Positions 3,001 to 6,000 of a DNA stretch of 24,564 nucleotides are shown here, piece after piece. The stretch lies in IMG/VR virus record IMGVR_UViG_2740892233_000024, one strand, 5' to 3'. The DNA comes from a virus. Its lineage: Duplodnaviria > Heunggongvirae > Uroviricota > Caudoviricetes. Made by a program: the position numbers. Within the stretch, counting starts at the first letter, position 1, and every line of letters starts with the position of its first letter.

Positions 3001-6000
3001 NNNNNNNNNAATGGTAGGTCTGGATATCTTGAGAAATGAACAGGCCTCATTGAGTGTGAGGCTGTGGTTAGTCCTTGCGTAGCTCGCTAATTCTTCTGTA
3101 AGTCTCTGGTGCTTTGTTTCCGTGTATCTTCATTTCAGACTTCAACAGAGCGACGAGGGAATCCCATTCGTTGAGGATGCCTTTGAATGCCGGAACGCGC
3201 TTTGCAACCTTGTCGAATGAATCTCTGATTTCTGGAATCTGCTCAACAAGTGCAACGCATCGCCGGAAGTCTGCTGCGTCATGTGGAGCGCCGAAGTGAT
3301 GACCATAGATATTCTTTTTCAGTCCACATGCGATTGAGGCAAGAGTTGCGCTACTGATGCCAACATCGCCAGTCGATTGCCATTTCANNNNNNNNNNCCA
3401 AATCTGACATTTCTTGTCTCCATAAAACAAAACCCGCCGTAGCGAGTTCAGATAAAAGAAATCCCCGCGAGTGCGAGGATTGTTATTCATTGCCGATATT
3501 CACCTTTATCGCGAACACCTTTACCGGTTTATCTCCTTTGCATGGCGCGTAATTTTTTCAGATGGTTCTCCTGCTCTGTTTCAGCCAGAATTTGTCGGTA
3601 TTCCTGGTGATCGATCCGTTCAAACAGTTCATTAAAATCGTTTATTTTTACCGACTGTGTTCGCCCATCCATTCTTCTGTACAACACAGTGTTGTTTATG
3701 CAGCGAAGAATTTTTATCGGGTAGCCGGCGCTATCGGTGTATATCTGACCACGTTGAATCAGAGCGAACATTCCTTTATCCCCAGCGGAAAAGCGAATAC
3801 AGAATAAATGCCACCGCGATTGCAACTCCTACAGCGGTGAATGCTTCAGGCCAATTCATCATTCACTCCCTGCGGCGGTTCTGGTAGCAGCATCCAGTAC
3901 AAGGCGTTCCCTAACCACGATAAAGTGCCGTCGCTCAACTCCACGTATTCCTCTTGTACCTGTCCTGCCATATACTCACCGTGCTTTGAATAAATTAAAA
4001 TCCAATCATCTTGAGCGGGCATTCGCTCACTACAGCTTATCCAACCACCCGGACTTACCGGAGAGTTGCCAGTCTTACGCATGGCAATCTCCACGATTTC
4101 AACCATATCTCCTGGCAGAATTTTACAAAGCTGGCCAAAGCGCCTCTGCTGCCTGGCATACTCGAGGATGTGCTCCAGTTTGGTTCGATTAATCATGATT
4201 TATCTCCCTTAAGCATGGCTGCACGGCAGGCGTTCCAGCCTCTCACCTCTGCAATAGCTGCAACAGCATCAACTGTGTACATGCTAAGAGGGTTAGGCAT
4301 TGGTTTTTCTTCCGGTACTACTGGCGATGGCTGTTTGGCTTCTAAATCAGCAATTCTGTCAACTACGGCATCGACAGCATCTGAAAAACTGAAACAGTTA
4401 CTCCACTCAGGCCTATCCCCGGTTGTTGCGAAGTACATATCAGCTAAAGCAGACTCAGCATGGTCACGCTCGTTAATGAGTTGCTCTTCGCTTTTCTCCA
4501 GTTCAGCAATACGTTTACTCCCATCCGAGATAACACCTTCGTAATACTCACGCTGCTCGTTGAGTTTTGATTTTGCTTCCTCAAGCTCAACACGCAGCTT
4601 CCCTACCGTTAGCGCAATTTCCTCGTTCTCCTGGTCGCGGCGTTTGATGTATTGCTGGTTTCTTTCCCGTTCATCCAGCAGTGCCAGCACAATCGATGGT
4701 GTTACCAGCTCATGGAAAAGGTCCGCATCAAATCCCCAGTCGTCATGCATTGCCTGCTCTGCCGCTTCACGCAGTGCCTGAGAGTTAATTTCGCTCACTT
4801 CGAACCTCTCTGTTTACTGATAAGCTCCAGATCCTCTTGGCAACTTGCACAAGTCCGACAACCCTGAACGGCCAGACGTCTTAGTTCATCTATCGGATCG
4901 CCACACTCACAACAATGAGTGGCAGATATAGCCTGGTGGTTCAGGCGGTGCATTTTTATTGCTGTGTTGCGCTGTAATTCTTCAATTTCTGATGCTGAAT
5001 CAATGATGTCTGCCATCTTCCATTAATCCCTGAATTGTTGGTTAATACGCTTGAGGGTGAATGCGAACAATAAAAAAGGAGCCTGTAGCTCCCTGATGAT
5101 TTTGCTTTTCATGTTCATCGCTCCTTAAAGACGCCGTTTAACATGCCGATCGCCAGACTTAAATGAGTCGGTGTGAATCCCATTAGCGTTACCGTTTCGC
5201 GGTGCTTCTTCAGTACGCTACGGCAAATGTCATCGACGTTTTTATCCGGAAACTGCTGTCTGGCTTTTTTGATTTCAGAATTAGCCTGACGGGCAATGCT
5301 GCGAAGGGCGTTTTCCTGCTGAGGTGTCATTGAACAAGTCCCATGTCGGCAAGCATAAGCACACAGAATATGAAGCCTGCTGCCAGAAAAATGCATTCTG
5401 TTGTTGTCATGCCGGGTCTCTCTCGTTTGCTTCTGCTTTCGCCGCCATCATTTCCAGCTTTTGTGAAAGGGATGTGGCTAACGTATGAAATTCTTCGTCT
5501 GTTTCTACTGGTATTGGCACAAACCTGACTCCAATTTGAGCGAGGCTATGTGCCATCCCGATACTCGTTCTTAATTCAACAGGAGATGCTTTGTGCATAC
5601 AGCCCCTCGTTTATTATTTATCTCTTCAGCCAGCCGCTGTGCTTTCAGTGGATTTCGGATAACAGAAAGGCCGGGAAATACCCAGCCTCGCTTTGTAACG
5701 GAGTAGACGAAAGTGATCGTGCCTACCCGGATATTATCGTGAGGATGCTTCATTACCATTGCTCCCCATATACAAAACCAATTTCAGCCAGTGCCTCGTC
5801 CATTTTTTCGATGAACTCCGGCACCATCTCGTCNNNNNNNNNNTGTCACCCACATGCTGTACTGCACCTGGGCCATGTAAGCCGATTTTATGGCCTCGAA
5901 ACCACCGAGCCGGAACTTCATGAAATCCCGGGAGGTAAACGGGCATTTCAGCTCAAGGCCGTTGCCGTCACTGCATAAACCATCGGGAGAGCAGGCGGTG

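Follow-up and report, generated by a model that had tools for sequence, protein, structure and literature searches.

A probable excisionase-gene scar beside a gap-distorted 114-aa early gene in lambdoid prophage DNA of Escherichia coli

The viral record IMGVR_UViG_2740892233_000024 is a stretch of 24,564 nucleotides (referred to as the window hereafter) which contains lambdoid prophage DNA of Escherichia coli, running from the early-left to the late region. Towards its left end (positions 3010–3490, minus strand; Table 1) lies a gene for a protein of 114 amino acids (aa), whose stop codon almost touches a 57-bp piece similar to the beginning of an excisionase gene (xis). An original prediction made from the bare sequence had described this locus as an excisionase fragment fused to a 140-aa gene. 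The window is interrupted by nine runs of N, each of exactly 10 N, which start at positions 3000, 3388, 5834, 6182, 17330, 22746, 23127, 23297 and 23620. The true lengths behind the measurable runs are 12, about 22 and 102 bases, so that the length of the placeholder is not preserved, and two of the nine runs lie at or within the locus considered here.

The run starting at 3388 lies inside the 114-aa gene. Between the flanking motifs CCATTTC and CCAAATC the window has A followed by 10 N (11 positions), while alignment gives 13 bases in both E. coli O26:H11 strain 11368 (AAAACCTTCATAG) and phage HK022 (AAAATCTTCATAG). The window is thus 2 nt short, which shifts the frame and creates the false 140-aa open reading frame (ORF) that had been proposed at 3068–3490; its length and its good ribosome-binding site (RBS) are both products of the N-run. 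The expected filling is AAACCTTCATAG, which would give the 114-aa frame, and the upstream frame when ungapped is an ORF of 32 codons, MNNNPRTRGDFFYLNSLRRVLFYGDKKCQIWL*, ending in TGA. The 114-aa protein begins MSDLAMKVLKWQ, from an ATG matching window position 3410. Outside the gap it is identical to WP_001281192.1 (ECO26_RS16795) of E. coli O26:H11 11368, and it shares 97–98% identity with hypothetical proteins of phages HK022 and 434. Five independent records (O26 11368, HK022, 434, g341c and Stx2a_WGPS8) annotate it at 114 aa, and phage 434 has an RBS annotated at the place equivalent to GGAGAC. HK022, 434, g341c and RefSeq genomes thus already contain the gene, under the label of a hypothetical protein. 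Its copies in HK022 (gp32 or HK022_32, ‘N15 early protein homolog’, called HK022p30 in a note of the g341c record), 434 (CPT_434_33) and O26 11368 (ECO26_RS16795) are all hypothetical proteins of 114 aa and occupy the same place as in the window, being the last early-left gene before the integration module; the window copy is set apart from them only by its 12 N-hidden bases and its left flank of N.

It is extremely unlikely that the 140-aa ORF is genuine in this strain, which would need hidden bases different from those of all relatives to keep the long frame open. The ATG of the long frame is preceded by AAGGTGA and called database variants of 123–152 aa exist, but the flanks of the run are 99.6% identical to genomes with the 13-base filling and a closed frame, and the long variants are explained otherwise, either by a different upstream start adding 9 aa (P0001) or by C-terminal read-through into the excisionase piece (P0004 and P0011). 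The extension also overlies two terminator-like hairpins and has no counterpart in the family alignment, where the starts of the members fall at MSDLAMK or at most about 10 residues away. An annotated Rho-independent terminator is found just upstream of the copy of the gene in phage g341c.

On the other side of the gene, the first codon of the excisionase piece lies one base from the TAA (3068–3070). The original prediction was accurate in describing a near-copy of an xis N-terminus on the minus strand, with its start codon gone and the TAA of the upstream gene in its place. When compared with the xis elsewhere in the window (1326–1382), 47/57 nt (82%) and 15/19 aa are identical, codons 4–22 of the latter reading HSLTLNEACSFLKISRPT, while the best ungapped match elsewhere in the window is 30/57, which is the chance background. 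This comparator, an HTH_17 (PF12728) excisionase of the type present in P22-like phages and in the argU/intD prophage, starts with MESYSLTLDEACQFLKISRPTA, and it is the first 22 codons of it that the piece resembles. Relative to the intact layout, 10 bp (TATGGAATCA) including the ATG are missing, and from the last upstream stop to the start of the piece the xis frame is free of ATG, its two leucine codons there being CTT and TTA. Of the complete helix-turn-helix domain of a functional Xis (51 profile positions in a protein of about 116–123 aa) only 19 codons are left, the homology being cut after codon 22, and no intact ORF with an initiation codon exists, as the 10-bp deletion takes the ATG. 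The C-terminus of the comparator is itself unlike that of P22-type Xis, and its equivalent in O26:H11 11368 is an incomplete helix-turn-helix pseudogene according to RefSeq; given this call, excision of the argU/intD prophage may be impossible.

The same piece is identical in O26 11368 and closely similar, with few base differences, in 434 and HK022. It is situated in all three between the stop of the gene and a hairpin (GCCGCATCAATGCGGC) followed by TTTT, and the homology ends at this hairpin. What follows in phage 434 is an annotated terminator, the pI promoter and a lambda-type xis of Pfam family Exc, a family without relation to that of the parent gene (HTH_17). The closest complete genomes likewise show the piece, then an intrinsic terminator, an unrelated lambda-type (Exc) xis and int, instead of the remainder of an HTH_17 excisionase. 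Judged by its sequence, the region 3010–3066 is a relic and not an excisionase gene, representing an ordinary recombination scar found in many lambda-like phages. A function for the relic, either as a terminator or attenuator part closing the early-left operon or as an anchor of homology that favours module exchange, is unlikely. It persists beside at least three unrelated integration modules, and a simple scan places a hairpin inside it (GCCTCACACTCAATGAGGC then CTGTTCATTT). However, this hairpin is inherited from the gene, being present in an intact xis with a single base change in the loop, and its T-tract is weak; moreover, the retained length varies by lineage (about 36, 45 and 57 bp), as neutral leftovers would, and a relic of only 57 bp that is still near its parent fits recent neutral retention.

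Table 1. Features at the locus and at the left end of the window (+/−, strand;., no strand).
Feature	Position	Strand	Remarks
int	1–1164	−	Left end of the window
HTH_17-type xis of the argU/intD prophage (comparator)	1020–1391	−	ATG at 1391; Pfam HTH_17, E = 1.2e-8
10-N placeholder, apparently joining two unrelated pieces	3000–3009	.	argU/intD prophage (1–2999) and second lambdoid prophage (3010 onward)
Relic of an HTH_17/P22-type xis (5′ end, codons 4–22)	3010–3066	−	Non-coding; reads HSLTLNEACSFLKISRPTI; no start codon
114-aa gene, HK022 gp32/PHROG 1229 family	3068–3410	−	ATG at 3410; 345 nt with the 12 masked bases restored
10-N run inside the gene	3388–3397	.	12 real bases; shortfall of 2 nt makes the false 140-aa frame
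False N-terminal extension of the ‘140-aa ORF’	3411–3490	−	Over two terminator-like hairpins; TGA-ended ORF of 32 codons when ungapped
RBS of the 114-aa gene, GGAGAC	3416–3421	−	5 nt upstream of the ATG at 3410; read from the sequence
Terminator-like hairpin upstream of the gene	3430–3449	−	GAACTCGCTACGGCGGGTTT then TGTTTTAT; hairpin scan (L001 6442–6423)
Second terminator-like hairpin	3460–3481	−	AATCCTCGCACTCGCGGGGATT then TCTTTTAT; hairpin scan (L001 6474–6453)

A synthetic ancestral query, comprising the HTH_17-type xis body, the relic and the gene, was searched against complete genomes, and the full layout was found in one piece in eight of them. Seven of the eight, including SA53-3, read GAC TAA CT ATG GAA TCA TAC AGC, where xis starts 2 nt past the stop of the gene, while the 10 bp TATGGAATCA are absent alike in the window, O26, 434 and Stx2a_WGPS8. 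In KS-NP019, a P22-like prophage at tRNA-Thr, a complete xis body comes after the 10-bp-deleted junction, a layout which looks like an intermediate. The xis body of KS-NP019 (L087 2542–2892) directly follows the 114-aa gene without a canonical start codon; RefSeq annotates a shorter ‘DNA-binding protein’ there, and the first codon, read from the sequence, is apparently ATA. In Stx2a_WGPS8, about 36 bp of the old xis are kept beside an AlpA-type xis, and in g341c the ATG and 18 xis codons are kept before a switch to an HK620-type module. One accessory gene is thus found joined to four different integration modules, and the varied xis remnants beside an unchanged gene argue that the gene stayed in place while the adjoining integration module was exchanged several times, pieces of the displaced xis being left behind. 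The original prediction had suggested that an accessory gene was inserted into, or recombined with, the xis region. A recombination junction does lie inside xis, but insertion of the gene does not hold, as the gene was already located 2 nt upstream of xis (SA53-3; g341c).

The following course of events is proposed for the locus. The 114-aa gene would have been the last gene of the early-left (pL) operon, situated 2 nt upstream of an HTH_17/P22-type xis. A 10-bp deletion in one lineage would then have taken the start codon of xis, and the integration module would later have been swapped for unrelated ones, with breakpoints in the first ~60 bp of the old xis. These swaps would have left the first ~12–21 codons of the old gene, which in the window would be represented by the 57-bp non-coding relic at the stop codon of the 114-aa gene. 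Work on HK97/HK022 and HK620 reportedly revealed pervasive mosaicism with short shared boundary sequences in lambdoid phages. The scar described here resembles such module boundaries, homology changing abruptly at a gene boundary or close to it, but differs from them in that the breakpoints lie inside the coding start of the displaced gene, leaving a recognisable gene fragment. No description of this particular xis scar was found in the literature searched.

The left flank of the relic in the window is formed by the other N-run. After the comparator xis, the minus strand carries DUF4222, a DksA/TraR zinc finger gene, small ORFs and exo, of which only the C-terminal part, ending at 2999, is present. 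Positions 1–2999 match positions 612,093–615,091 of O26:H11 11368 (tRNA-Arg/intD prophage) with 99.97% identity and one mismatch, and in that prophage exo is intact and runs on into bet and gam. Positions 3010–5833, by contrast, match a prophage near 3.137 Mb of the same genome with 99.6% identity, and 3010–4200 aligns in one piece, at 99% identity, to many complete E. coli genomes including O26:H11 11368. The two sides of 3000–3009 are thus 2.5 Mb apart in the closest complete genome, and in none of 5,426 complete E. coli genomes do they occur together within 1.3 kb. The piece from 3010 starts exactly at the terminator hairpin and module switch seen in the relatives. The run 3000–3009 is, as far as these alignments tell, a chimeric join of two prophages, and the exo fragment belongs to a prophage other than that of the relic.

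Further redundancy is present in the window. Two paralogous segments (1723–2999 and 4832–5990), which both contain DksA/TraR, small ORFs, DUF1382, DUF1317 and exo, are about 95–96% identical; they are interpreted as the copies of two prophages, a type of repeat known to break short-read assemblies. At 21358–24564, three successive pieces separated by N-runs all cover one reference segment, and are apparently redundant contigs from paralogous prophages. Adjacency across N-runs is hence unreliable in this draft.

It is highly improbable that the junction of exo fragment, xis fragment and accessory gene is a real rearrangement of the strain, for instance a deletion by which a second prophage was fused to a DLP12-like argU remnant. 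Shiga-toxin-producing E. coli are well known for rearrangement between prophages, and the gap at 3000–3009 might be short, as the N-runs that can be checked hide only 12 to 102 bases. Against this, the two sides come from different prophages lying far apart in the closest genome and are never neighbours in the complete genomes searched, position 3010 is a terminator hairpin and module edge of the kind at which assemblies typically break, and the overlapping redundant pieces in the tail of the window show that adjacency across an N-run is not to be relied on. A chimeric join thus remains the preferred explanation of 3000–3009.

The 114-aa protein belongs to PHROG 1229, a family of unknown function in PHROG, which it matches with an E-value of 7.1e-52 (residues 1–114 on positions 1–113 of 116), and all of 40 diverse homologues (40/40) match the same family. 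The statement of the original prediction that no family could be recognised is therefore right with respect to Pfam, NCBIfam and the PDB, and wrong in so far as the protein is a member of PHROG 1229. No match was obtained to Pfam, NCBIfam, PADLOC or PDB sequences or by a profile search of the PDB, the viral structure library BFVD gave uncharacterised family members only, and none of the 40 diverse family members has a credible Pfam match. The AlphaFold2 model (pLDDT 91.6) is all-helical with seven helices, for which no match exists in the PDB. A word-indexed search retrieved only enterobacterial relatives together with many truncated or chimeric forms, while a profile search of 1.84 billion cluster representatives retrieved 2771 at E ≤ 1e-3 and 601 at E ≤ 1e-10.

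Invariant residues of the family are S20, P43, D45, D48, R51, C52 and W83, and W11, G18, S21, G30, L55 and P60 are nearly invariant. The resulting signature (W11, G18-x-S-S21, G30, P43-x-D-P-x-D-F-x-R-C52, L55, P60 and W83) is wholly present in the window translation outside the masked residues, and several of the invariant residues (S20/S21 and P43–D48) are situated at helix starts in the model. Fusions of the family to a CCA-adding/HD enzyme, to a second copy of itself and to MazG-, DUF1382- and Ea22-type N-termini (the last three recognised by eye) occur, none of them being common. Called proteins which join the gene to other sequence occur in many E. coli prophages, namely P0004, P0011, P0015, P0017, P0028, P0036, P0049 and P0063. 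P0004 and P0011 are read-through products into the xis relic, as their sequences were read, and the fusions in P0017, P0028, P0036 and P0049 are deduced from length and Pfam tag only (Erf, Ea22, Kil and PF10800). A link with the dATP/dGTP pyrophosphohydrolases of DUF550/PF04447 (MazG) was rejected, as the 114-aa protein has no Pfam hit and as P0015 and P0063 turned out to be chimeric, each consisting of a DUF550 N-terminus and part of the 114-aa gene; the same Pfam tag is attached to P0051. Nucleic-acid binding or DNA mimicry deduced from charge was also rejected, as isoelectric points in the family range from about 5.0 to 9.5 (5th–95th percentile).

The family occurs in 277 phage records, which comprise lambdoid and P22-like phages, 150 Vibrio phages and phages of Mannheimia, Arthrobacter and Aeromonas as well as a Nonanavirus, and in 132 plasmid records, 109 of them from Pseudomonas; all of the plasmids listed are 250–580 kb in size. 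The phage homologues, including those of Vibrio phages, lie in runs of small early genes, and homologues are also found in phage contigs for which no integrase was called in the stretch examined. Two metagenomic phage contigs have genes for RNA ligase, RtcB or nucleotide kinase a few kb from the homologue, and in some elements a Lar-like gene or DNA methyltransferase genes adjoin it. A distant homologue in plasmid p60503-DIM of P. aeruginosa (L085 6995–7351) adjoins two DNA methyltransferase genes and a gene for an SOS-response-associated peptidase. In the neighbour clustering of 70 viral loci, the focal gene could be positioned in 54, among which no recurrent neighbour was found, the commonest being present in 6 loci; a link with tRNA or nucleotide metabolism was thus rejected. 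In the window and its relatives the gene order is DksA/TraR, Ea22, DUF551, DUF4222, the 114-aa gene and then xis–int, and the window itself carries, beyond the 114-aa gene on the minus strand, DUF4222, DUF551, Ea22, DksA/TraR, repeated small ORFs and then exo, bet and gam. The gene is therefore promoter-distal in the early-left operon and next to the integration module, a lambdoid position consistent with its assignment to PHROG 1229.

No sigma-70-like promoter for the 114-aa gene was found in a simple consensus scan. The gene points in the direction of the pL operon, is placed within the early-left operon and is flanked by terminator-like hairpins, which together suggests that it is expressed only under N antitermination, early after infection or induction. 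N-antiterminated transcription from pL would thus probably supply the protein at an early stage of lytic growth. A study of phage L states that the majority of early-left genes are of unknown function (PMC8022706). No experiment or paper on the 114-aa family was found in the literature searched. As an analogy of context only, restriction alleviation proteins of the Ral/Lar type are also small, stand-alone, encoded in early operons and spread over phages and plasmids, but in the searches made the 114-aa protein has no similarity in sequence or fold to any characterised protein. It may tentatively be regarded as a stand-alone early accessory that aids establishment of the element by host takeover or counter-defence, and not as a defence gene of the prophage; this is the likeliest functional class, although at well below even odds.

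The original prediction had pointed to the integrase-proximal end of lambdoid prophages as a hotspot for accessory and defence genes, a hint for which no supporting evidence emerged. A role of the 114-aa gene in anti-phage defence or lysogenic conversion, as cargo of such a hotspot, is very unlikely. The position next to xis–int is variable in lambdoid phages and the protein is small and without a known family, as such a gene might be. However, it matches none of the PADLOC-DB defence models (0 families at E ≤ 1), its orientation and position are those of a pL-operon gene, and it is devoid of a promoter of the type scanned for, with terminator-like hairpins upstream. Its homologues also occur among the small early genes of Vibrio phages, in contigs with RNA-repair or nucleotide-kinase genes and in a Pseudomonas megaplasmid beside two DNA methyltransferase genes; that plasmids and a Nonanavirus phage carry them speaks against a role specific to lysogeny or defence.

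The locus is accordingly read as an ordinary lambdoid mosaic boundary blurred by draft gaps, where the relic results from a module swap and the 140-aa ORF is made by a gap (probability about 0.85), the role of the gene as an early accessory being the far more tentative part. Several points weigh against this reading. The order of events, with the 10-bp deletion before the swaps, is based on a handful of genomes and on no phylogeny; the bases left of 3010 are N, so that the window itself cannot display the true left flank of the relic; a strain-specific rearrangement there retains a small probability; the assignment of function is purely inferential; and helix capping or a place in the protein core, and not a functional or catalytic site, could account for many of the invariant residues. 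Two bolder readings are possible but doubtful. The 114-aa protein, as the E. coli representative of a very large family shared by phages and plasmids and lacking a Pfam entry, may have an undescribed early function, such as neutralising a host defence or binding a ligand or a widely conserved host factor. Independently of this, the first ~60 bp of the HTH_17-type xis may be a recurrent breakpoint for integration-module swaps.

Some other features of the window lie apart from this locus. A gene at 19166–20125 (minus strand), in opposite orientation to the flanking phage genes, encodes a 319-aa protein matching Pfam LpxR (outer membrane protein LpxR; E = 7e-40) and looks like cargo. Four ORFs of 156, 164, 148 and 98 aa are present at 8353–10916, between a DUF2528 gene and a cI-like repressor gene. 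None of them has a PADLOC match, and those of 156, 164 and 148 aa are also without a Pfam match. A position of this kind often holds exclusion genes in lambdoid phages. Collinearity with the O26 11368 prophage ends at window position 8917. An exact 32-mer of the exo gene is also present on short contigs of a Candidatus Nanosynbacter metagenome-assembled genome and a Bacillota metagenome-assembled genome, which is most likely binning contamination.

The original observation as reported is of little importance, but it illustrates that fixed-length N placeholders in a draft can create both a false ORF and a false gene neighbourhood, and the locus is a clear example of the scars that integration-module exchange leaves in lambdoid prophages. 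The forward-looking item is the uncharacterised protein family, which spans lambdoid, P22-like, Vibrio, Arthrobacter and Mannheimia phages as well as Pseudomonas megaplasmids and has neither a Pfam entry nor a solved structural relative. It is genetically tractable in HK022 and 434, and a function assigned to it could cover thousands of genes at present annotated as ‘hypothetical’.

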